From Bacilli bacterium (GTDB lineage: Bacteria; Bacillota_I; Bacilli_A; RF39; UBA660), in contig JAFOMI010000005.1 in NCBI GenBank assembly GCA_017418945.1, positions 1-62,453 of the forward strand: DNA of 62,453 bases, given 5' to 3'. Positions within the stretch are counted from its first letter, which is position 1. Each line of letters opens with the position of its first letter. Position numbers and translations under genes: made by a program. Positions 2,945 to 61,708 of this stretch are shown here, one piece after another. Under the pieces are notes generated by a model, which worked only from the letters and a program-made list of their open reading frames with translations, was not told the origin of the DNA and did no database searches.

Positions 2945-3160
2945 CTATTCAAACCAACCACTTATAGTATCAACAATTGCTTTAAAATCAATCATTTTAA
3001 TTAATACTATAATATATTGAATTAACATAAAGAATAATGCAAAGAATACGATTGTAAATAATGTAATTGCTACATTTTTCCATAGTTCTTTACCTTTACA
3101 CCATCTTATTCTTTTTGCTTCTGATTTCATATCAGATATTAAATCTTTAATCTTTTCCAT
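2945..3160 (-). CDS. secE: Preprotein translocase subunit SecE
   Basis: 71 aa with a single C-terminal TM helix preceded by a basic segment. It lies directly upstream of nusG. Confidence 0.85.
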   Translation of the reverse strand: MEKIKDLISDMKSEAKRIRWCKGKELWKNVAITLFTIVFFALFFMLIQYIIVLIKMIDFKAIVDTISGWFE

Positions 3161-9902: not shown

Positions 9903-11594
9903 TTACATTTTTTCAGGTATTTCTATACCTAATAAATTACATCCTACTTTTAATACATTCATAACTATAGAGATTAAATAAACTCTTGAATTTCTTTCGT
10001 CTATATCATCACTTAAAATCTTAAATGTATTATAGTATTCACTATAAGTTTGTGCTAATTTAATTAAATATCTAGATAAGATATATGGTTCATTTTTATC
10101 TATAACTTCTTTTAATACATTATTAAAATTATATATTTGTTTAACTAAGTCATAAGATAAATCATCATGTAATTTATCATATTTAACATCATTAATCAAT
10201 ACTTCAGTATTAAGTTTACGTAAAATACTCTTTATTCTAACACACATATATTGAATATATGGACATGTTTCTCCTTGAAATTCAAGCATTTCATCTATAT
10301 CAAATACTTCATCTTTAATTCTTGAATTATATAAATCTCCAAATATGATTGCTCCAATACCAACTTTCTTAGCAACTTCATCAATATCTTCTAAATCAGG
10401 ATTTTTTTCTAGTATCTTATCTTTTGCTTTAGAAACTGCATCTTTAATAATATCTTCTAGTTTAATAAAGTTACCTTTTCTAGTAGACATCTTACCTTCT
10501 TTTAATCTATACATACCATAAGATACATGAACTAATCCATTAACATATTTAGGATCTAAATCAAGATATTTTGCTACTGCAAATACTTGTTTAAAATGAA
10601 GTTCTTGTTCATAACCTGTTACATATATTGATTTATCATAATCATATGTTTTTGCTCTATACATAATTGCCGCTAAATCACGAGTTGCATATATACTTGA
10701 TCCATCACTTTTTTCTATAATACAAGGTGTATTAATTCCATCTTCTTCAAGATTAACTATTTTAGCACCTTGACTTATTTCTAATTTATTATTCTTTTCT
10801 AGTATTTTAATAATATTTTCTTTTGCATCTACGTATGAAGCTTCACCTTTAATACTATCAAATTCAATACCAAGTTTTTTATATGTTTCATAGAATTCAT
10901 CTAAACTTAATTCTCTAAACTTTTTCCATAAAGATATACAGTAAGGATCTCCTTCTTCTAAAAGTTTAAAGTTATTTCTACATCTTTCTAATACTTCAGG
11001 ATTCTCACATTCTTGGTTTATTCTAACGTATATTTCAACTAATTTATCTATAGGATCAGTAGATAAATCATATTCATTACCCCATAATTTGTATCCCTCA
11101 ATTAATTTACCAAATTGAGTTCCATAGTCTCCTAAATGATTTATACCAACAGTATTATATCCTAAATATTTATATATATTATATAATGCATGTCCTATCA
11201 AAGTTGTTCTCATATGACCTATATGGAATGGCTTTGCAATATTAGGAGATGAATATTCAACACATACAGTTTTACCGTTTGATTCTTCTTTACCAAAATG
11301 ATCTTTAGTATTTTCATATTCTTCAAATACTAATTTAGTTAAATATTCTTTATTAATATAAAAATTTAAATAACCATTAACACTTTCTATTTTTTCTACT
11401 ATTGGAGAATTAATTGAATCTTTTAATTCATCCGCAATTACCATTGGTGCTTTATGTAATTCTTTTGCAAGTATAAAACATGGAAAAGTATAGTCACCTT
11501 TTTCTTTCTCTTTAATTTCCTTAATTAAATCATATGTCTTAATGTTTACTTTTTCGTCTAATAAATTAGATAACTCTTTTTTTAAATCAACCAT
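9903..11594 (-). CDS. argS: Arginine--tRNA ligase
   Basis: 563 aa with class I HIGH (PFHIGHMR) and KMSK-like (KMSTRKG) motifs. Confidence 0.95.
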   Translation of the reverse strand: MVDLKKELSNLLDEKVNIKTYDLIKEIKEKEKGDYTFPCFILAKELHKAPMVIADELKDSINSPIVEKIESVNGYLNFYINKEYLTKLVFEEYENTKDHFGKEESNGKTVCVEYSSPNIAKPFHIGHMRTTLIGHALYNIYKYLGYNTVGINHLGDYGTQFGKLIEGYKLWGNEYDLSTDPIDKLVEIYVRINQECENPEVLERCRNNFKLLEEGDPYCISLWKKFRELSLDEFYETYKKLGIEFDSIKGEASYVDAKENIIKILEKNNKLEISQGAKIVNLEEDGINTPCIIEKSDGSSIYATRDLAAIMYRAKTYDYDKSIYVTGYEQELHFKQVFAVAKYLDLDPKYVNGLVHVSYGMYRLKEGKMSTRKGNFIKLEDIIKDAVSKAKDKILEKNPDLEDIDEVAKKVGIGAIIFGDLYNSRIKDEVFDIDEMLEFQGETCPYIQYMCVRIKSILRKLNTEVLINDVKYDKLHDDLSYDLVKQIYNFNNVLKEVIDKNEPYILSRYLIKLAQTYSEYYNTFKILSDDIDERNSRVYLISIVMNVLKVGCNLLGIEIPEKM

Positions 11595-14020: not shown

Positions 14021-14965
14021 TTATTTTTCTATTTTTATTATAAATTCATATAACTTATCAAATTCATAACTATCATAAGTAGATACAAATCCTTCTTCTT
14101 TTAAAGAATTAATAAATTCTTTTACTTTTTCTTGCAATATATCTCTTTTTGATTCATCATTTTCTTCAATCATAATAGGTTCATCATTAATAGTTTCTAT
14201 TTCTCTTTCTTCATTTATATTTCTTAATGATTCCATAGGTACATTATTTATTACTTTTTCTTTAGGCTTATCAAAGAAAGAATCAAAATTTAATGAAGGT
14301 TCTGTTTTAATTTCTGTTTTGATTTCTGTTATATTTGAAACAGGTATATATTCTTCATTATTAATATAACTATTTATTAAATTTTCTGTTTCTCTAACAT
14401 TTAATCTTTCATTCATTATTCTATTTAAAATTTCTACTTGTTCATCTTCATTTTCTATTTTAAGTAAACTTCTAGCATGTCTTTCACTAATCTTATTATT
14501 TAATAATGCATCTTGAACATCATTTGATAAATTTAATAATCTTAATTTATTAGAAATTGAACCTTGAGTTTTACCCATTCTTGATGCTAATTCATCTTGT
14601 GTTAAATATCCTCTATCTAATAATTTTTTATATGACTTTGCTTCTTCAATTGGAGATAAATTTTTTCTTTGAATATTTTCTACAATTGCTACTTCAGCAG
14701 ATTCATTATCATTTAAATCAATAATTATTGCAGGCACTTTAGTTAAACCAGCAATATAAGAAGCTTTATATCTTCTTTCACCTGCAATTATTTCATATTT
14801 AGTTCCGACTTTTCTTAAAACTAAGGGTTGAATAATTCCATGTTGTCTTATTGATTTTGCAAGTTCATTTAATGCATCTTCATCAAAAGATAATCTTGGT
14901 TGAAAACGGTTTGGAATAATATCATCTAACGATACTTCAATTATTTCCTTTTCCATATTATTCAT
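14021..14965 (-). CDS. noc: ParB/Noc-family CTP-dependent DNA-binding protein, Noc-like
   Basis: Has the IPNRFQPR box, a GERR arginine patch, and an HTH (TQDELASRMGKTQGSISNKLRLLNL...KISERHARSL). By eye the HTH resembles B. subtilis Noc (GKGQSTIANKLRLLKL...KITERHARAL) more than Spo0J. The C-terminus (EFDKLYEFIIKIEK) is also Noc-like. It lies directly downstream of rsmG. Confidence 0.8.
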   Translation of the reverse strand: MNNMEKEIIEVSLDDIIPNRFQPRLSFDEDALNELAKSIRQHGIIQPLVLRKVGTKYEIIAGERRYKASYIAGLTKVPAIIIDLNDNESAEVAIVENIQRKNLSPIEEAKSYKKLLDRGYLTQDELASRMGKTQGSISNKLRLLNLSNDVQDALLNNKISERHARSLLKIENEDEQVEILNRIMNERLNVRETENLINSYINNEEYIPVSNITEIKTEIKTEPSLNFDSFFDKPKEKVINNVPMESLRNINEEREIETINDEPIMIEENDESKRDILQEKVKEFINSLKEEGFVSTYDSYEFDKLYEFIIKIEK

Positions 14966-17641: not shown

Positions 17642-18814
17642 TTAATTTAAAAAATCTTTTAAATTTTTAACTTCTTTTTTTCTATATAGCAAATATAATG
17701 CTTTTTCTTCATTTTGTCTAATTCTTTCTCTTGAAATATTGTAATCATTAGATATTTCTTCTAATGTCATTGGTCTATTTCCATCTAAACCAAACCTTTT
17801 TATAATAACATCTTTAAGTCTTTTGTTTCTACTATTAGTACGTAGATTGCTTGTATTTGTATCAAAAGTTTCATTTAGTATTTTCATTAATTTACTTCTT
17901 AATTCACTTTTTTCAACATTATCTATTGCTTTTTCATAATTAGTGTCTGGAATAAAATTTAATAATTCATCTGATTTATCATCATCTGCTTTTAATTGTT
18001 TATTTAAACTATTATAAGAATAATTGTATTTTAAAGCATTTATAACATCAAGTTCTTCTAATTCAGTTATTTTAATTAAATCTTCTACACTAGGACTCTT
18101 ACCATTATTATTTTTTAAATACATAGATGTTGCTATTCTAATCTTATTTATTTTTACATTTAAATTTGCTGGTATTCTAATGATTTCATTTGTATTATAT
18201 ATTGCTTTTCTAATTGTACATTTTATCCACCAAGTTGCATAAGTAGATAGCTTTAAATTTTTATCTAATTCAAATCTATCTAACGCCTCTATTAAACCAA
18301 TTGTACCTTCTTGAATTAAATCTTTATAATCAATACCTCTACCTACAAAATTCTTAGCAATTGAAGCTACTAATCGTAAATTAGATTCAATTAATATTTC
18401 TCTGGCTTGCATATCCCCATTCTTATATTTTTCAAGTAATTCTCTCTCTTTTTCAGGACTTAAAATAGGAATTCTTGAAATATCTTTTATATAAGAAGTA
18501 GATGTAGTATCCTCTATTTCAACATTTAAATCTATTTGTTCATCCATGTCTTCAATTGAATAATCTTTATAAATAATATAATTTTTAATAAAAACTTTTA
18601 TAGTATGATTTGTTAAACCATTATAAAATTTTTCAAACTTTTCTTTATTTATAAAACTATCTATAACATAATCATTTATTAATTCTTCTAATAAGTCATT
18701 TAATCTTGATTTTCTTTCTAATATTTCTAATATTTCATCATCAGATATATTAGGATTTATATTTTCTTTTTTAAAAATAGTTTCTAATGTTTTAAATACA
18801 TCTTCTTTTTTCAA
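17642..18814 (-). CDS. Divergent RpoD-like (group 1/2-type) sigma-70 factor
   Basis: 390 aa. Has region 1.2/2 (YIKDISRIPILSPEKERELL, NLRLVASIAKNF, DLIQEGTIGLIEALDRFE, STYATWWIKCTIRKAI), region 3 (IRIPANLNVKINKI) and region 4.2 (TLEEISNDYNISRERIRQNEEKAL). It ends with NLKDFLN, as RpoD does. Confidence 0.85.
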   Translation of the reverse strand: MKKEDVFKTLETIFKKENINPNISDDEILEILERKSRLNDLLEELINDYVIDSFINKEKFEKFYNGLTNHTIKVFIKNYIIYKDYSIEDMDEQIDLNVEIEDTTSTSYIKDISRIPILSPEKERELLEKYKNGDMQAREILIESNLRLVASIAKNFVGRGIDYKDLIQEGTIGLIEALDRFELDKNLKLSTYATWWIKCTIRKAIYNTNEIIRIPANLNVKINKIRIATSMYLKNNNGKSPSVEDLIKITELEELDVINALKYNYSYNSLNKQLKADDDKSDELLNFIPDTNYEKAIDNVEKSELRSKLMKILNETFDTNTSNLRTNSRNKRLKDVIIKRFGLDGNRPMTLEEISNDYNISRERIRQNEEKALYLLYRKKEVKNLKDFLN

Positions 18815-18887
18815 TTAAAGCACCTCTCTTTTTCGTAAATTATATTATATATATTTATAAAAAAAAGTCAAAAGAAAAACAAAATAT

Positions 18888-19811
18888 TTAAATAATATAT
18901 TTTGCTTCTTTATTATTATAAATAATATCATATAAATTGTTAATTAAAGTACAATTTAATTTATATTTATCAATTATTACCTTAACACTAGATAATGTAT
19001 TTAAACCTTCTATAGTATCTTTTATTTCTTTGTGAACATGATCTAAATCATAACCTTGCCCAATTAAAATACCCGCTCTTTTATTTCTACTCTTTTCACT
19101 AATTGATGTTAGATATAAATCACCAATACCCGCTAATCCATAAAAAGTACTTTCTTTTGCACCAAGTTTTAATCCTATTTCTTTTATTTCTCTTATTCCT
19201 TCAGTAAAAACATATGAATCTACATTAATTCCATAATTTAGTCCTTTAACTATTCCACTTATTAATGCTATAACATTTTTAAGAGCTGAACAAACTTGTA
19301 AACCTATAATATCATCATTATATGTTATTTTTAAATTATCATTCTCTAAATATTTTATTAATTCTTTATTACCTGATAACTCAACAAATGTTTTATTATC
19401 TGTACCTAATTCAGACGCAAATGATGGACCCATAATAATATTTGTTTCTTTTCCTAATTCCTCTTTTATAACATCTGATAATAATTTTTCATTCTCTAAT
19501 CCTTTTGACGCTAATAGTATTTCTTGATTATTAATATATTTTTTTATATCTTTACAAGTACTTCTAACAAAATTAGATGGCACTACTATTACAACTATTT
19601 CACTATCTTTTAATGCCTCTTCATAATCTAGATAACACTTTGTATTATTATTTAATTTAATACTAGGTATTTGCATGCATTCATGATTTATATTAATTGA
19701 ATCTCTCTCTTCTTTTGTAAAAGACCATATTTTAACATTATTATTTTTTTCAAATGAATGAGCTAATGCACACCCAAAACTACCACTACCAATTATTGTA
19801 ATATTTTTCAT
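18888..19811 (-). CDS. gpsA: NAD(P)H-dependent glycerol-3-phosphate dehydrogenase
   Basis: Has a Rossmann N-terminus (ITIIGSGSFGCALA) and GpsA-like motifs (GLKNVIALISGI, AGIGDLYLT). The start is the ATG at 19811, just after the mnmE stop. Confidence 0.88.
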   Translation of the reverse strand: MKNITIIGSGSFGCALAHSFEKNNNVKIWSFTKEERDSININHECMQIPSIKLNNNTKCYLDYEEALKDSEIVVIVVPSNFVRSTCKDIKKYINNQEILLASKGLENEKLLSDVIKEELGKETNIIMGPSFASELGTDNKTFVELSGNKELIKYLENDNLKITYNDDIIGLQVCSALKNVIALISGIVKGLNYGINVDSYVFTEGIREIKEIGLKLGAKESTFYGLAGIGDLYLTSISEKSRNKRAGILIGQGYDLDHVHKEIKDTIEGLNTLSSVKVIIDKYKLNCTLINNLYDIIYNNKEAKYII

Positions 19812-19816
19812 AATTC

Positions 19817-21154
19817 CTACTTTCCTAAACAAAATCTACTAAATATTTTATCTATTAATTCATTATCATAACTATCTCCAGTTACTTCTCCTAAATAATC
19901 TATTATATTTTTTATGTCTATTTCAAGCATATCTATTGGAATATTATTATTTAAAGCTTCAACTAGATTATTTGAAGCTTTTTTAGCTTTCTTTAATAAA
20001 GATATTTCTCTTGCATTTGAAATATAAGTCATATCTCCATCATTAATTTCATCTAATTTAAATAATTCATTTATTTTATTTAATAATTCTTCAATATCAT
20101 TATTTTCCGCACTTACTGATACATGATCTAAATCTAATATTAATTTACTATCTAAATCTTTTTTATTAACAACAATAATTCTTTTTTTATTCTTTGTTTT
20201 TTCAAGTAAATCTTTATCTTCATCAGTTAATTTCTCATTATTATTTAATACTAATAATACTAAACTAGCACTATCTAATAAAGATAAACTTTTTTCTACT
20301 CCAATTTTTTCCACAGTATTTGTTGTTTCTCTTACTCCTGCGGTATCTAAGAAATTAATTAAAACACCATTAATTCTAATACTTCCTTCTACTATATCTC
20401 TTGTTGTTCCTGGTATATCTGTTACTATTGCTTTATCTTCATCTAATAATCTATTTAATAAAGAACTCTTTCCAACATTTGGTCTTCCTATAATAACAGT
20501 ATTAATTCCTTCTTTTATAAGTTTTCCACTTTCAGAAGTCTTTAATAAATCATCAATCTCACTATTTAATTCATTAGAAAATCTTTTTATATCCTCAATT
20601 GTCATTATCTCTATATCTTCATATTCTGGATAATCTATATTAACTTCTATATTTGATATTAAATTCAATGCTTTATCTCTTAATTTTTTTATTTTACTTG
20701 ATAATCTTCCTTCTACACCAGATATTGCTAATTTTCTTGCACTTTCAGTTTTGGCATCTATTAAATCCATTACAGATTCAGCTTCTATTAAATCTATTCT
20801 ACCATTTAAAAATGCTCTTTTAGTAAATTCACCTGGTTCTGCAAGTCTTGCACCATTTTCAAGTAATAATTCTAAAATCTTATTAGTAACAGATATTCCC
20901 CCATGAGTATTTATTTCTATTATATTTTCTTTAGTATAAGTTTTTGGAGCTAAGAATACTGAAATTAAAACTTCATCTATTACTTTACCGTTTTCAATAA
21001 TATGTCCATAGTTAATAGTATTTGATTTAAATGAATATATATTTCTATCAAATATTTTATTTACAATTTCAAGAGCTTCATCACCACTAATTCTAACAAT
21101 TGAAATTGCTCCTACACCTTGTGCTGTTGAAATAGCTGCAATAGTATCGTACAT
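19817..21154 (-). CDS. mnmE: tRNA modification GTPase MnmE (TrmE)
   Basis: Has a G domain (GRPNVGKSSLLN, DTAG, NKKD) and the C-terminal CLGK motif. Confidence 0.97.
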   Translation of the reverse strand: MYDTIAAISTAQGVGAISIVRISGDEALEIVNKIFDRNIYSFKSNTINYGHIIENGKVIDEVLISVFLAPKTYTKENIIEINTHGGISVTNKILELLLENGARLAEPGEFTKRAFLNGRIDLIEAESVMDLIDAKTESARKLAISGVEGRLSSKIKKLRDKALNLISNIEVNIDYPEYEDIEIMTIEDIKRFSNELNSEIDDLLKTSESGKLIKEGINTVIIGRPNVGKSSLLNRLLDEDKAIVTDIPGTTRDIVEGSIRINGVLINFLDTAGVRETTNTVEKIGVEKSLSLLDSASLVLLVLNNNEKLTDEDKDLLEKTKNKKRIIVVNKKDLDSKLILDLDHVSVSAENNDIEELLNKINELFKLDEINDGDMTYISNAREISLLKKAKKASNNLVEALNNNIPIDMLEIDIKNIIDYLGEVTGDSYDNELIDKIFSRFCLGK

Positions 21155-26499: not shown

Positions 26500-26952
26500 A
26501 TGATTTCTTATGAAATAAATTGTGATACATTAGCTTTAATTCCAGTATCTGAGAATGAAACAAAAATAATTGAAAAAGAAAGAGAATTTATTGTTAATGT
26601 ACCAGTATTTAAAATAATAGAAAACAGTTGTGAATATTTTGGGAGTTCTTATTTAGGAAGACATGAAGGAACTAAAAAATTGATAGGTATTACTCATAAA
26701 GCACCTATAATAATTGAAGAAACTAATAAATTAATATATTTTCCTACAAGTTCGCCTAGATTATTTAATTGTAGTTGGATAGGTTTAAATCATATAAAAA
26801 ATTATCAAAGTAATAATGGAAAAACTGTTTTATCATTTAATAATGATGAGAAAATAAGTCTTGATATTTCGTTTGGATCTTTTGATAATCAGGTTTTAAG
26901 AGCAACTAAATTAGAATCAGTTTTAAGAAAAAGAATAAATCAATCAAATTAA
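26500..26952 (+). CDS. comK: ComK-family competence transcription factor homologue
   Basis: 150 aa. It aligns by eye to B. subtilis ComK: CEYFGSSYLGRHEGT against CRFFGSSYAGRKAGT, ITHKAPIII against ISHKPPIMV, CSWIGLNHI against CGWISHVHV, and SFDNQVLRA against SFENQVYRT. Confidence 0.8.
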   Translation: MISYEINCDTLALIPVSENETKIIEKEREFIVNVPVFKIIENSCEYFGSSYLGRHEGTKKLIGITHKAPIIIEETNKLIYFPTSSPRLFNCSWIGLNHIKNYQSNNGKTVLSFNNDEKISLDISFGSFDNQVLRATKLESVLRKRINQSN

Positions 26953-32560: not shown

Positions 32561-32564
32561 TATA

Positions 32565-32597
32565 AAAACTATGTTTCTTATGAAACATAGTTTTTTA
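32565..32597 (+). terminator. Intrinsic terminator after gyrA
   Basis: CTATGTTTC-TTAT-GAAACATAG followed by T6. Confidence 0.7.
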
Positions 32598-32616: not shown

Positions 32617-32644
32617 AAAAAATATTTCCCGGGAAATATTTTTT
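32617..32644. promoter_or_regulatory. Noc-binding-site (NBS) type palindrome, copy 1
   Basis: A perfect 28-bp palindrome, AAAAAATATTTCCCGGGAAATATTTTTT. Its core TATTTCCCGGGAAATA equals the published B. subtilis NBS consensus ATTTCCCGGGAAAT. Confidence 0.7.
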
Positions 32645-32656
32645 ATAAAAATTAAA

Positions 32657-32678
32657 TAATGTTTCACGTGAAACATTA
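32657..32678. promoter_or_regulatory. parS centromere-like site 1
   Basis: A perfect 22-bp palindrome, TAATGTTTCACGTGAAACATTA. Its core at 32660-32675 matches the Firmicute parS consensus TGTTNCACGTGAAACA. Confidence 0.8.
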
Positions 32679-32719
32679 AAAAAATTGACTTATTAAATAA
32701 TAAATAGTATATTATAAAT

Positions 32720-32790
32720 GCACAACGAAAAACTTGGAATCAGGTCAGGATAGAAATATAGCAGCCTTAACATTTAATTTTCGTGTGTGC
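32720..32790 (+). ncRNA. ffs: Signal recognition particle RNA, small (4.5S-like) form
   Basis: A single hairpin of about 71 nt. The 5' GCACAACGAAAA pairs with the 3' TTTTCGTGTGTGC. The conserved domain IV sequence CAGGUCAGG-AUA-GAAA-UAU-AGCAGCC corresponds to E. coli CAGGUCAGGUCCGGAAGGAAGCAGCC. TTGACT-N17-TATATT lies upstream (32685-32713) and a T7 run follows (32791-32797). Confidence 0.8.
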
Positions 32791-32816
32791 TTTTTTTGTG
32801 TATAGGTGAATAATAT

Positions 32817-33221
32817 ATGAATGAAAATAAAATATTAAATGAATTAAATAAACTTTTAAATAAAGCAATAAAGCATAATGAAGTACCAGTTGCAGCATTA
32901 ATAATTTATAAAAACAAAATTATTTCAAAAGCTTATAATAAAGTTAATAAAAAAAATAACATTTTAAATCATGCAGAAATCATAGCAATTAAAAAAGCTT
33001 CAAAAAAATTAAAAAATTGGAGATTAAATGATTGTATTTTATATGTAACATTAGAACCATGTGATATGTGTAAATCAATTATAAAAAAAACTAGAATTAA
33101 AAATATAGTTTATTATTCAAAACAAAATTTAAATAAAACAGAAAATGATCCTATATATTTTTATAAAGAAAATATTATATTTTCCACTTTATTAAAATCA
33201 TTTTTTCAATCAAAAAGATAA
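32817..33221 (+). CDS. tadA: tRNA adenosine(34) deaminase
   Basis: Has CDA-fold zinc motifs (HAE in NHAEIIAI, PCDMC in LEPCDMCKSII). It sits next to ffs and dnaX, as in Bacillus. Confidence 0.88.
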   Translation: MNENKILNELNKLLNKAIKHNEVPVAALIIYKNKIISKAYNKVNKKNNILNHAEIIAIKKASKKLKNWRLNDCILYVTLEPCDMCKSIIKKTRIKNIVYYSKQNLNKTENDPIYFYKENIIFSTLLKSFFQSKR

Positions 33222-33237
33222 TGTTTCACGTGAAACA
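33222..33237. promoter_or_regulatory. parS site 2
   Basis: TGTTTCACGTGAAACA, starting at the nucleotide right after the tadA TAA stop. Confidence 0.8.
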
Positions 33238-33256
33238 TGGTTTCATTTAGTTTTAA

Positions 33257-33272
33257 TGTTCCACGTGAAACA
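33257..33272. promoter_or_regulatory. parS site 3
   Basis: TGTTCCACGTGAAACA, identical to the classical B. subtilis parS 16-mer and exactly 35 bp after site 2. Confidence 0.8.
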
Positions 33273-33291
33273 TAGTTTTATTTTAATTTAA

Positions 33292-33307
33292 TGTTTCACG
33301 TGAAACA
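33292..33307. promoter_or_regulatory. parS site 4
   Basis: TGTTTCACGTGAAACA, exactly 35 bp after site 3. Confidence 0.8.
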
Positions 33308-33414
33308 TACAATACGATATCAATCAATGTTTCATAAAAGAGCAAAACATAGTATTAATTATATTTTATAAATTTTATAAAATTTAAATGCGAAAATTTT
33401 ATTTAAAAAATACC

Positions 33415-33442
33415 AAAAAATATTTCCCGGGAAATATTTTTT
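33415..33442. promoter_or_regulatory. Noc-binding-site (NBS) type palindrome, copy 2
   Basis: A 28-mer, AAAAAATATTTCCCGGGAAATATTTTTT, identical to copy 1. Confidence 0.7.
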
Positions 33443-33455
33443 ATGAATTAGATAG

Positions 33456-33477
33456 TAATGTTTCACGTGAAACATTA
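33456..33477. promoter_or_regulatory. parS site 5
   Basis: TAATGTTTCACGTGAAACATTA, identical to the 22-mer of site 1. It lies 13 nt after NBS copy 2. Confidence 0.8.
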
Positions 33478-33569
33478 CTGTTTTTTTATAAAAAAATAGT
33501 CCAGAAACCCTTTATTTATATAGAATTTTAAACAAAATGTGATATAATTAACATGAAAGGAAAATGTAT

Positions 33570-46494: not shown

Positions 46495-46563
46495 TTTGTA
46501 AAATTTGACAAATATAGCATGTTGTGTTAATATATGACTCGTTTATTCAAAGGGGGATATATT

Positions 46564-47865
46564 ATGAAGATTAGAAAATATGACTCAATCCTATTAGAAA
46601 TTGAAGAATTATCAAAGGATGAAATTGCCAATGGTAAAAGATTAAAGGAATTAGCAGAATTATTAGATAGTCAAAGAAAATTTATTAATAATTTTAATAT
46701 GAATGAAATTAAAGAATCATTAAAAGAATGTAATACTTATGAAGAATATAATGCATATAAGAATTTATTAAAAGAAAAGAAAACTTATATGAATAATGAT
46801 GAAAAAATAAATGCAATTCTTGAAGGTAATTATAAAGCTGCTAATAATAAAAGAAAATTAACTTTAAAAAAGGGTTTAAAAACAATAGGAATTCTTGGTT
46901 TAGGAACTGCTCTTGGAATTTCTTTATTTAGTTGTGTTATTAATAAGGGTAAAAATAAAGATAAACGTATTGATGGAGTAGTAAAAGAATATAATGATGA
47001 AGAAACTATAAATAATAATGCTACTTATGATAATAATACTAATAGTATTAATAATAAAGAAACTAATAAAGATTTTAAAAATTCTAAGAATATAAATAAA
47101 GATCAAAAAGAAAATACAACTGAAAAGAAAAAAGATGATGTTTCTAATAATAATGTTAATAAGACAAAAAAAGGATTAAAACCAAAAGATGAAACAACTA
47201 TAACTACTGATAATTCAGATAAAACAAGAACTGTGACTGGATATACAGGAAAACCTGTTGAAAAGATTTTAAAAGAAAATGTAGAAGTTAATACTGATGG
47301 AAAATTACCTATTGAACCATCTGTAACTATAATTGATAATACAAAAGAAAATAATAAAAAAGATACTTATGTTGAAGAAACTAATACAGAAAAATTACCT
47401 CCAATCACTAATGTAGAAGGAAATAATGAAATTACTCATGAAATTCCTAATAATAATACTGGTGAAAAGGAATATGATAAAGAAGATATCGATAAAAAAG
47501 ATACAGTTGTAGAAGAAAAAAATACTGAAGAATTACCTCCAATTAGTGTAGTTGAAGGAAATGATGAAAAAACTTATGATGTAATTAATAAAGATTCTTG
47601 TGATTCAATAAGAGAATATGAAGTAATTGAAGATAATACATTTGATTTACCATCACTTGATAATGTAGATGAAGCATCTTACATAGAAGATAGTAAAATT
47701 GAAAATTATACAGTTACTGATTTTACAGAAATAGAAAACATTTATTATGAAGATAATAATTATGAATTACCATCATTTGATAATGTAGAAGAAGATTATA
47801 CTGAAGAATTACCATCAAGTATAGAATCAAATGGTAAAACATACAGTATTAAGTATGGTATGTAA
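46564..47865 (+). CDS. Hypothetical bitopic membrane protein with Asn/Lys/Glu-rich repeat ectodomain
   Basis: The start is the ATG at 46564 after AAGGGGGA. It has an N-terminal helical region of about 110 aa, one TM helix (TIGILGLGTALGISLFSCVI), and a low-complexity region with repeated (E/D)LP(P/S) motifs. I recognise no family. Confidence 0.6.
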   Translation: MKIRKYDSILLEIEELSKDEIANGKRLKELAELLDSQRKFINNFNMNEIKESLKECNTYEEYNAYKNLLKEKKTYMNNDEKINAILEGNYKAANNKRKLTLKKGLKTIGILGLGTALGISLFSCVINKGKNKDKRIDGVVKEYNDEETINNNATYDNNTNSINNKETNKDFKNSKNINKDQKENTTEKKKDDVSNNNVNKTKKGLKPKDETTITTDNSDKTRTVTGYTGKPVEKILKENVEVNTDGKLPIEPSVTIIDNTKENNKKDTYVEETNTEKLPPITNVEGNNEITHEIPNNNTGEKEYDKEDIDKKDTVVEEKNTEELPPISVVEGNDEKTYDVINKDSCDSIREYEVIEDNTFDLPSLDNVDEASYIEDSKIENYTVTDFTEIENIYYEDNNYELPSFDNVEEDYTEELPSSIESNGKTYSIKYGM

Positions 47866-47882
47866 TTAAGGGGGCTTAAACA

Positions 47883-49046
47883 ATGGAAAGATTTAAAATA
47901 GATATAAATAAATCAAAATTAAGTATTGTAGGTCTAGCTTTAGCATTAGGACTTACAGGATGTAATAGTAATAAAGTTAGAAATGATTTAGCAGTTAAAG
48001 AAGATACAAGTGCATCAAAATCTACTGAAGTTTCAACTGAATATTCAACTGAAATAGTTACTAGTGAAGAATTAAATATAAATGATAATGCTTCTATTGA
48101 AAAAGTTTTAGATGAAAACTATAGTGATTATATGGATTTCTATAATGAAGTAGGTATGAGTAAGGATGATTTAAGAGACGTTATATTTATAATTAATGAT
48201 AAATATCAAGATGAAGATGGAAACTTATTAGTAGATGAAGAAAGAGTTCACAATGCTTATTCAAATTTAAATCAAATGCTTGTTAATACTTCAGTTCTTC
48301 AATCAATGGATAATATTAATACAATTGAAATGGATGAAGAAATTGGAAAACAAATAGATAATAGTTGGGATATTAAAACTCATCCAACTATTGTACCTCT
48401 AATTGATAAAAATATTTCTGGTGGTATTGCAACAGCTGAAAAAATTAAGGAATTTGAAGAATTAAGAAATCATGTTATAGAAGAAATGAATACTAATAAT
48501 AAAATTGATAAAGAAACAATTAACTCATTTGTTAAAAAAATGGAAATAGATGATTATAATACTAATAGTGATAATCTTGGAAAAGTAAGAAAAAATGGTC
48601 AAAAATATTTATTAGCTGATTCAAAATTAAGAGTTCTTTATTTAGCAGCTATAGCTAATCCAAAAACTATTTATTTAGAAGGTTATGAAGGAATTGATAA
48701 GAATATTAAAATAAATCCAACAAGTGAAGAAAGATTCTTAAAAAATGATATTTTAACATTAGTTCAAGAAGGTATGCTTAATGGACAAGCTGTTGATGCT
48801 ATTCTAGAAGATAGTGAAAAGGGTTCCTTAGCATATACTCCTGAAGAACAAGAAATAATTAATAATTATGGATTATCTAACGATCAATTAAGATTAGTTT
48901 TAAGTTATGCTCATTATTTAACTACAATGGCTTATTATAAATATGATAAAATGACTTGTAGTGCAGAAGCAAAAACAATTAATACTATTGAAAGTATCAA
49001 AGAATATAGTAATAGTATGTCTAAACAATATAAAAAAGAACAATAA
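47883..49046 (+). CDS. Hypothetical lipoprotein
   Basis: Has a lipobox (LALGLTGCNS) and a good SD (AAGGGGG). 387 aa, and I recognise no family. Confidence 0.65.
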   Translation: MERFKIDINKSKLSIVGLALALGLTGCNSNKVRNDLAVKEDTSASKSTEVSTEYSTEIVTSEELNINDNASIEKVLDENYSDYMDFYNEVGMSKDDLRDVIFIINDKYQDEDGNLLVDEERVHNAYSNLNQMLVNTSVLQSMDNINTIEMDEEIGKQIDNSWDIKTHPTIVPLIDKNISGGIATAEKIKEFEELRNHVIEEMNTNNKIDKETINSFVKKMEIDDYNTNSDNLGKVRKNGQKYLLADSKLRVLYLAAIANPKTIYLEGYEGIDKNIKINPTSEERFLKNDILTLVQEGMLNGQAVDAILEDSEKGSLAYTPEEQEIINNYGLSNDQLRLVLSYAHYLTTMAYYKYDKMTCSAEAKTINTIESIKEYSNSMSKQYKKEQ

Positions 49047-55094: not shown

Positions 55095-56336
55095 ATGTTC
55101 AAGGATTATAATAAATATTTATCAGCAAGTTTAAAAGTGTATATTTTTGTATTAGTTATTATATCTATACTAAAGATAGTTGGATTAGACTATTTTGGAA
55201 TAGATTCAAATAATCCAATATTAGTAGAAATAGATAAATTATTTGAAAATAGGTATTTATTAGATTTTTATTATTTAATAACTTTAACTTTTTATACGTA
55301 TGTGGTAGTAAGTATTAGTTGTGATTCTATAAATTCTGTTAAATATACTTTATTAACCTTACCAATATCATATTTAGTCCAAAATTCCAAATATTGGTTT
55401 GGTTTAAGTAATATATCTATTGTAGTAGATTTTGTTTATCTATTTTTGCTATGTATAATTTATAATAAAATTTATAAAACTATATCATATAAGAAATTAA
55501 CCAAGAGATTTATAATCTATAATATAATTAGTTTCTTGATTCAATTAGTATCATATATCACAAGATATAAATATAAAATTGAATATGATTATGGATTTAT
55601 TACAAATTTTATTTTAAATTTTGATTACATGATTTTAACTGTAATTATTTACAAATTAGCTTTTATGAAAGGAGTTGATTCTGTATGCATATACCAAACG
55701 GAAGTTGGTTCATTTTTGCAAAAGAAACAAAACTTAAAGAAATCGCTTCAAGAATTGCGAAAAAACTTTCAAAGTAATTTGAAAAATTTCAAAAAATACA
55801 ACAAAGAAGAAAAACTAACATTTATTCTTTATTTAACTTTTAGTTTTATATGGAATGTATTAAGTGTATTATTAATTTTATTATTTGCTAGATTAAATTA
55901 TTCTTTTGTTGAGTGCATATTTATATTAACATCCTTTTGGCTTTCAAAAAGTAAATTTGGTAAAGCATTTCATTTTAATAGTATGGCAGTATGCTTTGTA
56001 GTTTCTAATTTAACTTATTTTATATTAAATAGAGTAACTACACCATTAGGTATAAGTATATTTGTTCCTATATTACTAGGAGTGGGTCTTTCTTATTTTA
56101 CTTCTAAATTGGTTAAAAAAACATATAAAACATTATATAGAGGTATGCCTATTGATTTATTTAATGATACTATTTTAAAAGTGGTAGATAAGAATAGTCA
56201 AAAATATAATATTTGTAAAGAATTTTATATAGATAATGTTACTGACTTATCATTATCATTTAAATATAATTATTCAGTAGCTGGAATAAGAAAGATAAAA
56301 GAAAGAATAAATGAAAAGATAAAAGAACTTAATTAA
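55095..56336 (+). CDS. Polytopic membrane protein: N-terminal 6-TM module, AgrB-like 4-TM module, C-terminal HTH-like tail
   Basis: 413 aa, with SD GGTGGAGG. Residues from about 245 to 340 show an AgrB-like His...Cys pair spaced by 7 (FGKAFHFNSMAVCFVVS, H293/C300). The C-terminal 60 aa resemble sigma region 4-type HTH (DLSLSFKYNYSVAGIRKIKERI). The domain assignments are tentative. Confidence 0.45.
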   Translation: MFKDYNKYLSASLKVYIFVLVIISILKIVGLDYFGIDSNNPILVEIDKLFENRYLLDFYYLITLTFYTYVVVSISCDSINSVKYTLLTLPISYLVQNSKYWFGLSNISIVVDFVYLFLLCIIYNKIYKTISYKKLTKRFIIYNIISFLIQLVSYITRYKYKIEYDYGFITNFILNFDYMILTVIIYKLAFMKGVDSVCIYQTEVGSFLQKKQNLKKSLQELRKNFQSNLKNFKKYNKEEKLTFILYLTFSFIWNVLSVLLILLFARLNYSFVECIFILTSFWLSKSKFGKAFHFNSMAVCFVVSNLTYFILNRVTTPLGISIFVPILLGVGLSYFTSKLVKKTYKTLYRGMPIDLFNDTILKVVDKNSQKYNICKEFYIDNVTDLSLSFKYNYSVAGIRKIKERINEKIKELN

Positions 56337-56464
56337 ATTAAGTTCTTTTTTTAATTGTATTGTTTTGTATCAGTAATTAAGTCTAATATTTTGAATTAGA
56401 AACCTATAGGGAGTGGTATTTATAAGAATAAAATTTATTTAAAAATATTAATAAGGAGTCATTT

Positions 56465-57205
56465 ATGAAATTTAATTTTAGCAGCAAGTATTATTTCATC
56501 TTTAATATATTATTATTTACTATTGTAATATATTATTACTTAAAAAATATTAAATTAAAAGGTGATATTATTAAGCTTTTTAAATGTGTAAATGAGTATG
56601 AAGAAATTATAACTGATCAAGGGAAGAAGAATCATGAGTATAATAATCAATTAATTGTATTAAAAGGTTATGTTGATGATAAAGAAAAGTTAGAAGAGTA
56701 TTTATATTCACTTATAGATGATCATAAAACTGGTCAAAATTTTGAAGTTAGACAGTTATCTAAATTACCACAAGGCGGAATAAAAGTTCTTTTATATAAT
56801 AAAATTTTTAAGATGAATAAAAATGGAATAAAATATGATATTTATGTTTCAAAAGAACTTAAAAATATATTACTTAATTTAGAAGTATGTATGTGTAAAG
56901 ATATAAGTTTAATCCTTGGAGTTTTTCTAGATAACGCAATTGAAGCAGCAGCTAGTACTGATAAAAAAGAAATATTGATGGATTTTAAGAATGATAGTAA
57001 ATATATAGAATTTAAAATTCTTAATAGTTATAATTTAGATAATATTTCTTTAGATAAAAATTCTTTTAATACTACTAAAGGACAAGGACATGGTTTTGGT
57101 CTTAGATTAGTAAAAGATATTGTAAGAAGAAACAAAAAATTAGAAGTAGTAACAGATTATGATAATGATTATTTTATTCAAACATTATTAATAGAAATAA
57201 AATAA
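56465..57205 (+). CDS. AgrC/HPK10-type histidine kinase core with a single TM helix (no polytopic sensor)
   Basis: Has an H-box (KNHEYNNQLIVL, His57), an N-box (VFLDNAIEAA) and a G-box (KGQGHGFGLRLVKDIV). Only one N-terminal TM helix precedes the kinase core. Confidence 0.75.
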   Translation: MKFNFSSKYYFIFNILLFTIVIYYYLKNIKLKGDIIKLFKCVNEYEEIITDQGKKNHEYNNQLIVLKGYVDDKEKLEEYLYSLIDDHKTGQNFEVRQLSKLPQGGIKVLLYNKIFKMNKNGIKYDIYVSKELKNILLNLEVCMCKDISLILGVFLDNAIEAAASTDKKEILMDFKNDSKYIEFKILNSYNLDNISLDKNSFNTTKGQGHGFGLRLVKDIVRRNKKLEVVTDYDNDYFIQTLLIEIK

Positions 57206-58140: not shown

Positions 58141-59397
58141 ATGAAAAATAATAAAATTGTTATTCTATTTACATTTTTTATTTTAACTTTATTTATTCCG
58201 AATTTTGTACATGCGGAAGTTTATTCATGCCCAAAACTATTAGATTCAGTAAGTGAATATTATGATATAAATGACGAATTAGATACTTTAGTTTGTGAAA
58301 ATACAGATGATAATGATGTTGTAAGACAATGTAATGACTTAAATACTAGAAAAGCATTGCTATTATCAAAAATTTTTAAATATAATGATAAGATTGGAGA
58401 TACTTGTAATTCACCAGAATTAAGAAAAATAATAGAAGACAATGAATCAATATGTAAAAATACATTTGGTTCAACTTTAAAAGATTTAACAAAAGCTGTA
58501 ATGACTTTATTTTATATTTTAGCTCCTTTTCTATTAATAATATTTGGTTCAATTGATTTAGCTAAAATAGTAACTGGTGGTGGAGGAAAAGAATTTTCTG
58601 AACAATTAACTAAGTCAAAGAAAAATTTAGCAAAAAGAGTAATTGCGTTTGTTCTTTTATATATGACACCAGTTGTTGTTAATATACTTTTAAGTTTTAA
58701 TTTATCATCTTATTCATTAGATGGAGACTTTTATACTTGTAAGACAAAAACAACTTATACAATAGATAGATGGGAAGTAACATATATACCAAATAATAAT
58801 TCATCGTCTGGAAATGTTAGTGTTACTAATTGGCATACTGACTGGTTCCAAGGTGATGATAGATGGGGAGGATTACCATGGCACGGGGATGGAACAGTTG
58901 CAGCAGGTGGATGTGGTAGTTTGGCCACATCAATTGTTGCTTCACATTATAGTGGCAATGATACTGAGAGTTCTCCATATTATCCTGTAAATACTGCAAA
59001 AGAGTATTATAATAGAGAAATACAACCCAATTTGAGATCAGATGCTATAACTAAGTATTTTAATGAATGGCATCCAGAATTAGGTCTAAAAGCCACTTAT
59101 GTATTAGGAGATATTGATTATAATTATTTAGATAGTATTTTAGCAAAGGGTGGATGCGTAATTGCAGATTTTCAAAGTGATATAACTTATAATGGAGTTA
59201 GCATTTGGACTAGTGGTGGACATTATGTAACAATCATTGGTGGTAATCAACATTCAGGTTATAGAGTTGCTGATTCTAACGGTTCTCATGAAAATGGTTT
59301 TAGTGGAATAGCAGAATGGGCTCCTTATGGTCAGCATGTATTTGAAAAAGAATACATTAAATCACCTTGGTATTTCTATGTTATAGAAAAGTTATAA
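58141..59397 (+). CDS. Secreted/membrane protein: Cys-rich N-domain, TM hairpin, C-terminal C39-like papain-fold peptidase
   Basis: Has a signal peptide (..FVHA/EV), six Cys in the first 100 mature residues, and two TM helices around a basic GGGG loop. The C-domain has WFQGDDRW..GGCGSLATSIVASHY (Cys258), GGHYVTIIGG (His361) and RVADSNG (Asp). Confidence 0.7.
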   Translation: MKNNKIVILFTFFILTLFIPNFVHAEVYSCPKLLDSVSEYYDINDELDTLVCENTDDNDVVRQCNDLNTRKALLLSKIFKYNDKIGDTCNSPELRKIIEDNESICKNTFGSTLKDLTKAVMTLFYILAPFLLIIFGSIDLAKIVTGGGGKEFSEQLTKSKKNLAKRVIAFVLLYMTPVVVNILLSFNLSSYSLDGDFYTCKTKTTYTIDRWEVTYIPNNNSSSGNVSVTNWHTDWFQGDDRWGGLPWHGDGTVAAGGCGSLATSIVASHYSGNDTESSPYYPVNTAKEYYNREIQPNLRSDAITKYFNEWHPELGLKATYVLGDIDYNYLDSILAKGGCVIADFQSDITYNGVSIWTSGGHYVTIIGGNQHSGYRVADSNGSHENGFSGIAEWAPYGQHVFEKEYIKSPWYFYVIEKL

Positions 59398-59420
59398 ATT
59401 GTTTTAACAAAGGAGAAAAT

Positions 59421-60155
59421 ATGAAAAAGAAAAGAATAATAATGTTGTTAATTATTGCTATATATATAATTATATCTATTTATTGCGATTTTATTTCTTC
59501 TAAAGAAAAGGTGGTTTATTTAGGAAATATTACTAAAGTATATATAGAAAATAATAAAATTAAAGTAAAAAATGATAATTATAATATTAATAATAAAAAG
59601 GTAAAATTATATTTTAATAATAAATTTATAAATGCTTATCTAAATTCAAATAAAGCAAATTTTTATAAAACATATTATGCCTTTGATAATAATAAAAACA
59701 GATTATTATTTGAAGGTGATTTAGTTGCGACTTCCAGTAATTTGAATTTAAAAATTTTAGAATTTAATAACGTAAAAGTAACTAATTCGGATTTAAATAG
59801 TTTATCAATTGTTATTAATAAAGACATTACTTCTATTTATAACTGTAATAAATATTATGTTGATTTAAATAGAGATAGTAATATAGAAAAAGTCTTTTCT
59901 TTCTTTATCGATGAATCAGAAGAAATAGCTAAAGAATACATTGTTGTAAAACAAAAAGAAGATTATAAAATTCTAACTACACTTAAAATTGAAAAAAAAT
60001 CACCTTCTAGGAAAGATTTGAAAGTATTTAATTTTATTGATCTTGATAATGATAGAAATTATGAAATAATTTTAAGAAAGAATGAAGGTGGAGATTCTAC
60101 ACCAAAATTTGAAGTATTTAAAATGAAAGATGATAAATACATTAAAGTAAAATAA
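59421..60155 (+). CDS. Hypothetical N-terminally anchored envelope protein
   Basis: The start is the ATG at 59421 after AAAGGAG. It has one TM helix and a beta-rich Asn/Lys-rich ectodomain ending with a DLDNDRNYE (Ca-binding-like) motif. I recognise no family. Confidence 0.6.
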   Translation: MKKKRIIMLLIIAIYIIISIYCDFISSKEKVVYLGNITKVYIENNKIKVKNDNYNINNKKVKLYFNNKFINAYLNSNKANFYKTYYAFDNNKNRLLFEGDLVATSSNLNLKILEFNNVKVTNSDLNSLSIVINKDITSIYNCNKYYVDLNRDSNIEKVFSFFIDESEEIAKEYIVVKQKEDYKILTTLKIEKKSPSRKDLKVFNFIDLDNDRNYEIILRKNEGGDSTPKFEVFKMKDDKYIKVK

Positions 60156-60171
60156 AGAAGGAGGTTTTATT

Positions 60172-61053
60172 ATGTGTGATAGAACAGTTATCTTAGTTTT
60201 GTTATTTGTTTTAAAAATATTAATGTTTATAATTGTTCCAGGTTTATTTATTCTATTTAGTGATAAATTAGATAAAAAACACATGAATAATATTTATTAT
60301 ATTGAATTGCTTTTGCTAATTACTTTTATAGTATTAAGATTTATTAATAATCCATGTATTGTTAATTCAACTATATCAGGAATTAGTATTAATTCTAATA
60401 AGAATTCAAAAAATTATATATATTCATCAAATTCCGCAAATACTGTGGAAAGAATAGTAACTAATAAGATATATACAAAAAGTAATAAACAAAAGATATA
60501 TTATTTTAATATTAATAAATTACCTTTAAGTAATAAAAAGATATATTGCGATAATGATTATGCTTATATGAAGAATTATGGAAGTAATATAACTGCGTTA
60601 TCTATTATTGTATCTTCTTTATATGATGAAAATATTGATCCAATTAAAATATTAAATTTATCTATTGAAAATAATATATTTGATTGTGAAACTGGTGTTA
60701 ATACAGATGAATTAATTAGTTTAGTTAATAATAATTATAACTTAAGTAAAAGAGAAATTAATTATACTGAATTAAAAGATTATATTAGAAATGGTGGAAT
60801 AGTACTTGCGGAAATAAATGCAGGTTCAAAAGAAAAAACAGTTTCTTGTTCTGCATCATATATAGTGATTTATGATGTTGATAAACAAGGTAATTTTAGT
60901 ATTTTAAATCCAAATGATAAAGATTATAAATATATATGTCCTGAAAATTCAGAGGGATATGGTAAAGTAATTGATTCTAATACAAATGACAAATTATATA
61001 GTTTAGATGATATTAAAAGTATTAGTTCAAGATATATAATATTAGAGAGGTAA
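60172..61053 (+). CDS. Membrane-anchored C39-like peptidase paralogue with substituted catalytic residues (pseudo-peptidase)
   Basis: YGSNITALSIIVSSLY aligns to GGCGSLATSIVASHY (Cys to Ser). SASYIVIYD aligns to GGHYVTIIG (His to Ser). ILNPND aligns to VADSNG. Two N-terminal TM helices. Confidence 0.6.
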   Translation: MCDRTVILVLLFVLKILMFIIVPGLFILFSDKLDKKHMNNIYYIELLLLITFIVLRFINNPCIVNSTISGISINSNKNSKNYIYSSNSANTVERIVTNKIYTKSNKQKIYYFNINKLPLSNKKIYCDNDYAYMKNYGSNITALSIIVSSLYDENIDPIKILNLSIENNIFDCETGVNTDELISLVNNNYNLSKREINYTELKDYIRNGGIVLAEINAGSKEKTVSCSASYIVIYDVDKQGNFSILNPNDKDYKYICPENSEGYGKVIDSNTNDKLYSLDDIKSISSRYIILER

Positions 61054-61057
61054 TAAT

Positions 61058-61708
61058 ATGAAAAATATAAAAAAGATTATTATTCTATTATTTGTTATAT
61101 TATTAACTGGTTGTTCAGGAACATATAATTTAAAGTTTAATGATGATTTATCTATTAAAGAAGAATTAAATGTTGAAATTCCATCAACTGAAGAAAATAA
61201 ACAAAAGACATTAGATTTATTTAAAAATAATAAAATTAATAATAAAAAATATAGTATTAAATCTTCAAATAATAAATTAAAAATTAAATATAGTGAAGAA
61301 TATATATCTATTGAAGATTATATAGTAAATAGTAATTTATATCATTTATTATTTGATAATATTAGTTATGATAAAACAGATAAATATATAGAAGTAGAAG
61401 CAAAGAATGCTTTGGATTTAAAGAATAATTCTATATATAAAGTTAATAATTATGATATATCTTTGTTTCAAATAAATTTAGAATCAACACATAAAATATT
61501 ATCAAGTAATTATGATCAAAAAGAAGGAAATATATATTCTTGGACATTAGATGAAAATACTAAAGAAAAAGAAATAAATTTTAAAATTAGCACAGATTAT
61601 TATAAAAATAGAATAGTATATTTAGTGCCATTAATAATTATTGGATTAGTAATGGTTATATCATTTATATATTTATATAATAGAATTAGAAAAACCAATA
61701 GATTATAG
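61058..61708 (+). CDS. Hypothetical lipoprotein with C-terminal TM anchor
   Basis: Has a lipobox (LLTGCSG), a C-terminal TM helix (VYLVPLIIIGLVMVISFIYLY) and a basic tail. Confidence 0.6.
   Translation: MKNIKKIIILLFVILLTGCSGTYNLKFNDDLSIKEELNVEIPSTEENKQKTLDLFKNNKINNKKYSIKSSNNKLKIKYSEEYISIEDYIVNSNLYHLLFDNISYDKTDKYIEVEAKNALDLKNNSIYKVNNYDISLFQINLESTHKILSSNYDQKEGNIYSWTLDENTKEKEINFKISTDYYKNRIVYLVPLIIIGLVMVISFIYLYNRIRKTNRL

Follow-up and report, generated by a model that had tools for sequence, protein, structure and literature searches.

parS and Noc-binding sites in described systems

ParB dimers bind parS, bind cytidine triphosphate (CTP), close, and slide off, which frees the site, and ParB at parS loads SMC. 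A larger number of parS sites speeds up ParB loading and makes condensation more stable (PMC8299390). Closely positioned parS are the rule, with 22 sites in 3 kb in M. xanthus and parS clusters at the crossing of the Hi-C secondary diagonal in gut species (PMC10197239), while the scattered layout of B. subtilis is the exception. The Noc-binding site (NBS) and parS are distinguished by two bases in each half-site, and an N-terminal helix is required for membrane binding of B. subtilis Noc. Here we analyzed the replication-origin region of an uncultured, spore-forming bacterium of the class Bacilli from the ruminant gut, with ~23% guanine plus cytosine (GC), as represented by a 62-kb stretch of DNA (62,453 nucleotides, contig JAFOMI010000005.1, hereafter the window). 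It contains five parS sites between gyrA and dnaX, three of them in a 35-bp tandem array, and an NBS beside each of the two outer parS sites. The tandem parS array alone is an ordinary chromosomal arrangement and adds little, and the exceptional status it had been given in a first-pass annotation was not upheld. The unusual part is the perfect NBS beside parS, a pairing conserved across an uncultured low-GC gut group. Our best explanation of the whole, which we regard as probable, is a chromosomal cluster of five parS that would be read by a distantly encoded ParB, together with a Noc-like clamp at the NBS.

The chromosomal parS clusters of M. xanthus, C. glutamicum, Caulobacter, and gut species are built like the window cluster, from the same consensus palindromes in several copies within a narrow origin-proximal zone, and in both cases loading of CTP-bound ParB clamps is expected, with site number scaling the loading rate. 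Unlike those clusters, the one in the window is not beside parAB but sits around ffs-tadA, from gyrA to dnaX; it is also interleaved with NBS, and its cognate ParB was not found in ~72 kb. B. subtilis Spo0J/parS shares the 16-mer consensus, the class Bacilli, and a similar origin gene order, but B. subtilis scatters 8–10 parS over ~0.75 Mb, whereas all sites detected here fall within 815 bp. The 16-bp NBS is identical to that of the Noc-NBS systems of B. subtilis and S. aureus, and the window encodes a protein with Q173, K179, R201, and CTP-switch residues from a gene that follows rsmG, as in those systems. Unlike canonical Noc, this protein is without the N-terminal helix, has Asn184 and a long variable linker, and scores below the NCBIfam cut-off. 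Canonical NBS are scattered through the origin-proximal part of the chromosome and are missing around the terminus, in contrast to the NBS detected here, all in origin-region DNA, which are paired with parS.

The nearest functional analogy is S. aureus RicO-ricS (bioRxiv 10.64898/2026.03.06.710092), in which the sites of a second sequence-specific DNA-binding protein cluster with parS near the origin; a role of this protein in restricting ParB sliding or SMC loading has been proposed. The likeness is functional only: RicO is unrelated to the Noc-like protein and has a C-terminal membrane helix, and ricS and parS lie 5–12 kb apart, versus 26–54 bp for NBS and parS here.

The parS cluster and the 35-bp array

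We placed the cluster near the origin because GC skew changes sign at ~22–24 kb of the window and the genes run in the order dnaA to dnaX. It lies ~9–9.8 kb from the dnaA start (23700), on the right side of dnaA/oriC. Sequence reading and motif search located TGTTTCACGTGAAACA exactly at 32660, 33222, 33292, and 33459, and TGTTCCACGTGAAACA at 33257. parS site 1 (32660–32675) is between gyrA and the signal recognition particle (SRP) RNA gene, 10 bp upstream of the -35 box of a promoter-like TTGACT-17-TATATT (32685–32713, the SRP RNA promoter). Sites 2, 3, and 4 (33222–33237, 33257–33272, and 33292–33307) are units 1 to 3 of the array, and site 5 (33459–33474), another exact match, lies inside a hairpin at 33450–33483. 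The three central sites are spaced by exactly 35 bp, and Tandem Repeats Finder reported a 35-bp unit in 2.6 copies at 33219–33309 (score 140, 87% matches). Unit 2 has C in place of T at position 5, which is ‘N’ in the B. subtilis consensus TGTTNCACGTGAAACA, and all three units can therefore fairly be called perfect; the ‘optimal’ B. subtilis parS used in PMC8299390 has the sequence of unit 2. The tadA stop codon TAA occupies 33219–33221, and the first 16-mer of the array begins at the very next base. The five sites span 32660–33474, or 815 bp, within one region of ~850 bp.

These data agree with most of what the first-pass annotation had read from the array. Sequence, motif search, and Tandem Repeats Finder confirmed three perfect units with an exact 35-bp period that abut the tadA stop, and the measured span matched its estimate of five perfect sites within ~820 bp. 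The idea that these are genuine parS near the origin, in a single ~850-bp spacer, was borne out by the consensus matches, by conservation, and by variation at positions 5 and 12 (below). The annotation had also allowed that the 18-mer might be a common repeat unrelated to the origin. Within the window this was ruled out, as 10 parS matches were observed with both strands counted, versus 0.03 in the shuffled window, and all were at one origin-near locus. Apart from the gyrA terminator hairpin, the 62 kb held no further parS or NBS at up to three mismatches, and ~10 kb of a close relative’s DNA past the left end of the window held none at up to one mismatch.

Some of the palindromes resemble terminators. 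The hairpin around parS site 5 has a 15-bp stem followed by a T-run (to ~33490) and folds at -15.9 kcal/mol (z = -6.1); probably it also serves ffs-tadA as an intrinsic terminator. The gyrA terminator hairpin (32564–32595, + strand; -15.3 kcal/mol, z = -7.8) has arms made of parS half-sites (CTATGTTTC-TTAT-GAAACATAG). It differs from parS by three mismatches, all in the core, where a TTAT loop replaces CACGTG, and it may be a parS turned terminator or a terminator turned parS. The NBS palindromes are flanked by A-runs and T-runs and fold weakly (-7.9 kcal/mol). These features would suit an explanation in which the palindromes serve mainly as terminators or RNA hairpins of gyrA, ffs-tadA, and dnaX and resemble parS and NBS incidentally. 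We consider that explanation very improbable. The sites match two protein-binding consensuses at 16 of 16 positions and occur in tandem up to 15 times in relatives, an iteration not seen in terminators; the 16-mer is conserved while its flanks diverge; a single array unit folds weakly (z = -2.3); and the variation among sites tracks the degenerate positions of parS and not stem pairing.

The fourth unit and copy number among strains

Downstream of unit 3 is a half-site remnant, ATGTTTCA...AAAACAT (33327–33350), which was kept across strains. The first-pass annotation had described it as a decayed fourth unit at 33327 that retained both arms. The left half-site ATGTTTCA is indeed intact, and 33327 is correct as the start of an 18-mer, but the equivalent 16-mer begins at 33328, which is 36 and not 35 bp after unit 3, and the right arm is shifted by 6 bp. 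A hairpin at this position was rejected, as the remnant did not fold (z = -0.3). TGTTTCA occurs elsewhere in the window at only ~0.29 per kb, and the remnant is thus unlikely to be in phase by chance (~0.001 by our estimate). Our best reading is that the duplicated block ends here in a truncated unit.

Independent metagenome assemblies of the same species contained either three units (the window, L005, L006, L010, and L013) or two (L009 and L014), from which we conclude that the array is real and its copy number variable. The base at the degenerate position also differed in its placement among strains, with TGTTTC in unit 2 of L009 and L014 and TGTTCC in unit 3 of L006, L010, and L013. Two scaffolds had N-gaps inside the array (L007 at ~3000–3130 and L008 at ~2770–2890), and two further contigs, L011 and L012, ended within it.

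The gyrA-tadA-dnaX locus in relatives

Loci of relatives were recovered via TadA in metagenomes and by a motif scan of one genome per species. The common gene order was gyrB-gyrA-[sites]-tadA-[sites]-dnaX. The first-pass annotation had proposed comparing the gyrA-dnaX spacer with related genomes, and in every relative with this gene order the gyrA/tadA/dnaX spacers held a parS cluster; the number of sites ranged from 3 to at least 15, and the periods differed. L020 had 5 parS at 39 bp. L066 (5384–5894) had 7 spaced evenly at 55 bp, with 9 in the stretch and 10 in the locus. A Bacilli metagenome-assembled genome (MAG) had 15 at 35–37 bp (L136, 4571–5087). Wider spacing was found in L025–L029, with 4–5 parS at ~140–177 bp, and L028 contained 11 parS and 3 NBS. 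In L032 (4445–4728) the repeated unit was itself composite: a 72-bp unit of NBS, a 10–11 bp gap, parS, and a ~30 bp spacer was repeated at least four times and reached the contig end.

Close relatives thus had periods of 35, 36, 39, 45, 55, and 72 bp at the same locus. Among 106 parS-like sites of the clade, positions 5 and 12, which are degenerate in the consensus, held 25 of the 32 mismatches, and the parS 16-mer was conserved while its flanks were divergent. From the same spacers but differently built arrays we conclude that the locus is conserved and that its arrays evidently turn over by duplication. Since relatives carry other periods here, the 35-bp geometry is best regarded as a by-product of duplication.

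Phased parS arrays across bacteria and on plasmids

The first-pass annotation took single, dispersed parS to be the chromosomal norm, iterated phased arrays to be a mark of plasmids or phages, and the 35-bp period to have a helical meaning. None of the three was sustained. The literature treats the scattered layout as the exception, as noted above, which makes B. subtilis a poor reference point. We scanned one genome per species for a perfect parS with two further parS- or NBS-type 16-mers at gaps of 10–40 bp and found such close triplet arrays in at least 120 species. Among the matches listed, 85 of 120 arrays were even within 1 bp, with periods of 30–55 bp, and 91 of 120 were within 8 kb of parA/parB-like genes. 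The taxa among the matches listed included Collinsella, Streptococcus, Lachnospiraceae, Streptomyces, and Acidobacteriota, along with Alpha-, Gamma-, and Deltaproteobacteria, Bacteroidota, and others. An invariant triplet of 39 + 39 bp was present in dozens of Collinsella species (e.g. L038). Overall, parS periods ranged over 26–72 bp and differed even among close relatives.

Could the exact phasing nevertheless be selected, so that successive ParB dimers sit 120 degrees apart and three units, making ten turns, hold a defined complex? The arithmetic is apt, as three 35-bp units amount to 105 bp, or ~10.0 turns if one turn takes 10.5 bp, and many other taxa have strictly even arrays, the Collinsella triplets among them. 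Still, we consider selected phasing unlikely, given the spread of periods at the same locus among close relatives, the absence of any preference for whole helical turns in the 30–55 bp periods of even arrays across phyla, and a copy number that differs between strains of the species. Tandem duplication by itself also gives even spacing.

Plasmids can carry similar arrays. The F plasmid sopC consists of 12 x 43-bp repeats. Like the window array, plasmid centromeres such as F sopC and that of pJFP838A are head-to-tail repeats with a fixed period and one palindromic ParB-type site in each. The 404-kb C. perfringens plasmid pJFP838A (NZ_CP013615.1; L159, 6064–6185) has four variant-core parS-like sites in tandem at 35/35/36 bp (TGTTTCATGTGAAACA twice and TGTTTCACGTTAAACA twice). 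Iterated repeats of this kind are typical of plasmids and would favor an integrated plasmid or phage centromere as the source of the array, but that origin is effectively refuted. Plasmid centromeres use replicon-specific variant sites, whereas the window array has the universal chromosomal consensus and sits among the core genes gyrA, SRP RNA, tadA, and dnaX, in an order conserved across the clade. The window contained no mobile-element genes and its composition was uniform. BLAST against plasmid and phage collections returned only short parS-containing stretches, and the sole ‘phage’ match was chromosomal. This record (MT836448.1, ‘Bacteriophage sp.’, UNVERIFIED; L158) is a mislabeled fragment of a bacterial chromosomal origin, with the order mnmE-mnmG-rsmG-[3 parS, 40/44 bp apart]-soj-spo0J. 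Adjacent NBS and parS had no match in a scan of viral contigs.

Noc-binding sites paired with parS

Two exact copies of TATTTCCCGGGAAATA occur in the 62 kb, both next to outer parS sites. NBS 1 (32623–32638) is 37 bp start-to-start before parS site 1, and NBS 2 (33421–33436) is 38 bp before parS site 5. By direct comparison, TATTTCCCGGGAAATA is the NBS core of the crystallography oligonucleotide in PMC7383237. We estimate the chance that two random sites in 62 kb would both fall <60 bp from a parS at ~1e-4. The NBS-parS pairs were present in all strains of the species compared, and in 277 kb of clade DNA 14 of 18 NBS sites were 26–54 bp from a parS.

The two kinds of site were kept apart. In 235 kb of clade DNA we classified 99 sites as parS-type and 18 as NBS-type, with one variant that had a single hybrid half-site; none of the 118 joined a parS half to an NBS half. 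The strict site classes, the concentration of mismatches at degenerate positions, and the proximity of NBS to parS together argue for a pair of specific dimeric readers, separate from each other and under purifying selection. We found no description of NBS-parS interleaving, or of the helix-less Noc-like family described below, in the literature searched.

In L164, a divergent relative, a near-NBS with one mismatch (TATTTCCCAGGAAATA, 9946–9961) precedes the Noc-like gene by ~55 bp and may serve in autoregulation; no counterpart exists in the window.

The Noc-like protein

The only ParB-family gene of the window by Pfam (14021–14965, - strand) follows directly after rsmG. Among solved structures its product matched Noc best (206 bits, versus 172 bits for Spo0J), and its C-terminal domain was Noc-like. 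Specificity is assigned to positions 173, 179, 184, and 201, which are R/T/A/G in ParB and Q/K/K/R in Noc (PMC7383237). The window protein has Q-K-N-R, three of the four Noc residues. In the same study, parS-specific variants always carried R173, dual-specificity variants mostly had T or S at 201, and Q173 and R201 with one lysine, at 179 or 184, sufficed for NBS binding (PMC7383237). Because Q-K-N-R falls under these rules, the protein is predicted to bind NBS and should not bind parS. The Q-K-N-R combination itself had no match in the accessible part of the supplementary variant data of PMC7383237. It was present in 119 of the 120 homologs listed, the window’s own protein included, and Asn184 is a family-wide difference from Noc.

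The residues of the CTP switch were also retained: the protein has GERR with R89, as well as N121, and the third arginine of GERRxR is a lysine. R89 and N121 were found in 120/120 of the homologs listed, and G86 and E87 in 119/120. The N-terminal 10-residue amphipathic membrane-targeting helix was not found, and the open reading frame (ORF) is too short for it, allowing just 18 residues before the NRFQPR motif compared with 40 in B. subtilis Noc. The short N-terminus was a family trait, with 18 or 20 residues before NRFQPR in 113 of the 120 close homologs listed and 15–20 in 142 of the 148 representatives in which the motif was located. Against the NCBIfam Noc equivalog TIGR04285 the protein scored 277 bits, below the cut-off of 315. 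The best 150 clusters at 50% identity were all Noc-like, with Q173 and R201, lengths of 227–785 amino acids, and a variable linker.

Within the linker, the motif SLNFDSFFDKPKEK (residues ~219–232) has an F-x-x-F-F pattern like that of the B. subtilis Noc helix, SFSRFFG, and is flanked by acidic residues. The pattern was present in 106 of the 120 close homologs listed and 38 of the 148 broader representatives, compared with 9% of shuffled tails. We treat it only as a lead to a possible relocated motif for membrane or partner binding.

The search for a parS-reading ParB

Through the end genes of the window we reached ~10 kb more DNA on the left and <1 kb on the right, for ~72 kb in total. Pfam scans of nearly all ORFs of the window identified no ParA, second ParB, or SMC. 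When six-frame ORFs of the window and of relatives’ loci were searched by phmmer with B. subtilis Soj and Spo0J, no parS-type ParB was identified, and none was seen in the neighborhoods of four long-contig family members, of which two belonged to a divergent subgroup. Spo0J of L158 was rejected as a search seed because its host is too distant (MnmG 51% identical, versus 64% within the clade).

Alternatively, the genome might encode no ParB-family protein other than the Noc-like one, which would bind parS as well as NBS and have the whole cluster as its loading zone. This protein is encoded by the sole ParB-family gene in the ~72-kb origin region and in the relatives’ loci examined, it has an invariant Asn at 184 where canonical Noc has Lys, and dual-specificity ParB variants are possible. 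However, parS binders always have R173 and dual variants mostly T or S at 201, whereas the window protein combines Q173 with R201, and a promiscuous reader would be unlikely to keep the 118 sites in two strict classes without a single mixed-half site. One reader for both sites therefore seems improbable to us. Since up to 15 perfect parS sites are maintained and the two classes are never mixed, we infer that a parS-reading ParB is encoded elsewhere in the genome. S. aureus provides a precedent: its noc lies beside rsmG, its ParB is encoded separately, and it has no ParA.

Several observations weigh against a distantly encoded ParB acting at this cluster. The window and the 10 kb past its left end yielded no R173/G201-type ParB, ParA, or SMC/ScpAB, and the surroundings of noc and tadA in relatives, the divergent subgroup included, yielded no parS-type ParB, ParA, or SMC. 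The best 150 family representatives likewise contained no parS-type ParB, all being Noc-like. In the ancestral Firmicute origin cluster, noc was accompanied by parA and parB, so this clade must have moved or lost both, and outright loss is possible. Some palindromes, namely parS site 5 and the gyrA hairpin, are terminator-like. Finally, all of the DNA was assembled from short-read metagenomes, and such assemblies break or collapse at the array.

A proposed model of the locus

Even with these points counted, a five-parS cluster read by a distant ParB, with a Noc-like clamp at the NBS, remains the explanation we favor. On this model the array would have been born by tandem duplication of one parS with its spacer, with a copy number that is still changing, and the 35-bp period would be the size of the duplicated unit and not a selected helical geometry. 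Each parS would serve as an independent loading gate, at which a ParB dimer binds, closes as a CTP-bound clamp, and slides off. Adjacent gates would raise the loading rate and yet act as one point source of ParB and, by extension, of SMC. The best reading of the cluster is as a local ParB nucleation zone, and it may possibly be the main one. The Noc-like CTP clamp encoded at 14021–14965 would load from the two NBS beside the outer parS, such that two related clamps load side by side at one locus. ParB binding, SMC loading, and the interplay of the two clamps are all predicted here from site and residue patterns.

A further step, which we put forward tentatively and consider doubtful as yet, is that a large uncultured low-GC lineage of Bacilli has a composite centromere, in which ParB/parS and a helix-less Noc-like protein with its NBS are interleaved at 26–54 bp and co-amplified as a tandem unit. 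If so, Noc would not serve in genome-wide nucleoid occlusion but would act at the centromere, for example by tethering the origin or, as an insulator or roadblock, by shaping the loading of ParB and SMC. The arrangement could also preserve an early stage in the divergence of Noc from ParB, in which NBS were born in parS arrays before the helix was gained and the sites dispersed. Such a birth is possible because the two sites differ by so few bases per half-site. More radically still, canonical ParB might be missing altogether, with parS and NBS both served by the Noc-like protein.

The locus offers a natural example of parS and NBS that stay strictly distinct though one or two DNA turns apart, and a case of two sliding clamps that would share one short stretch of DNA. 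The accompanying Noc-like family is large and has kept the NBS-reading and CTP-switch residues without the helix that defines B. subtilis Noc function. Together these make testable how ParB and Noc specificity are insulated in vivo and what role Noc had before, or has without, membrane binding. At a practical level, such arrays break short-read assemblies at the origins of many gut MAGs.

Gene context and additional observations

The source of the DNA was ruminant-gut metagenomes, and the window uses the standard genetic code. Left of the origin the genes run rpmH-rnpA-yidC-jag-mnmE-gpsA-sigma factor-mnmG-rsmG, and right of it dnaA-dnaN-comK-recF-gyrB-gyrA-SRP RNA-tadA-dnaX-yaaK-recR-holB. Sporulation genes in the window were spoIIR, spoIID, yabG, yabP, and spoVG. 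The small SRP RNA gene (ffs; 32710–32806, + strand) was identified by Rfam (RF00169, 54.9 bits), and the same search of the window found an L10 leader and no further families. tadA (32817–33221, + strand) has Pfam deaminase domains.

A comK gene (26500–26952, + strand) lies between dnaN and recF, a placement shared across the clade (L102, L111, L139, and L163). In the otherwise canonical origin cluster, a sigma-70-family gene (390 amino acids) and gpsA are inserted between mnmE and mnmG (17642–19832, - strand). In the relative L156 a different gene, of 207 amino acids, takes the place of the sigma-70-family gene. Six consecutive same-strand ORFs of 216–443 amino acids had no Pfam match (46534–49046 and 58141–61708, + strand). 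At 55095–57205 (+ strand) the gene for an AgrB-like protein precedes one for a GHKL-domain protein, a pair that suggests an agr-type quorum-sensing module.

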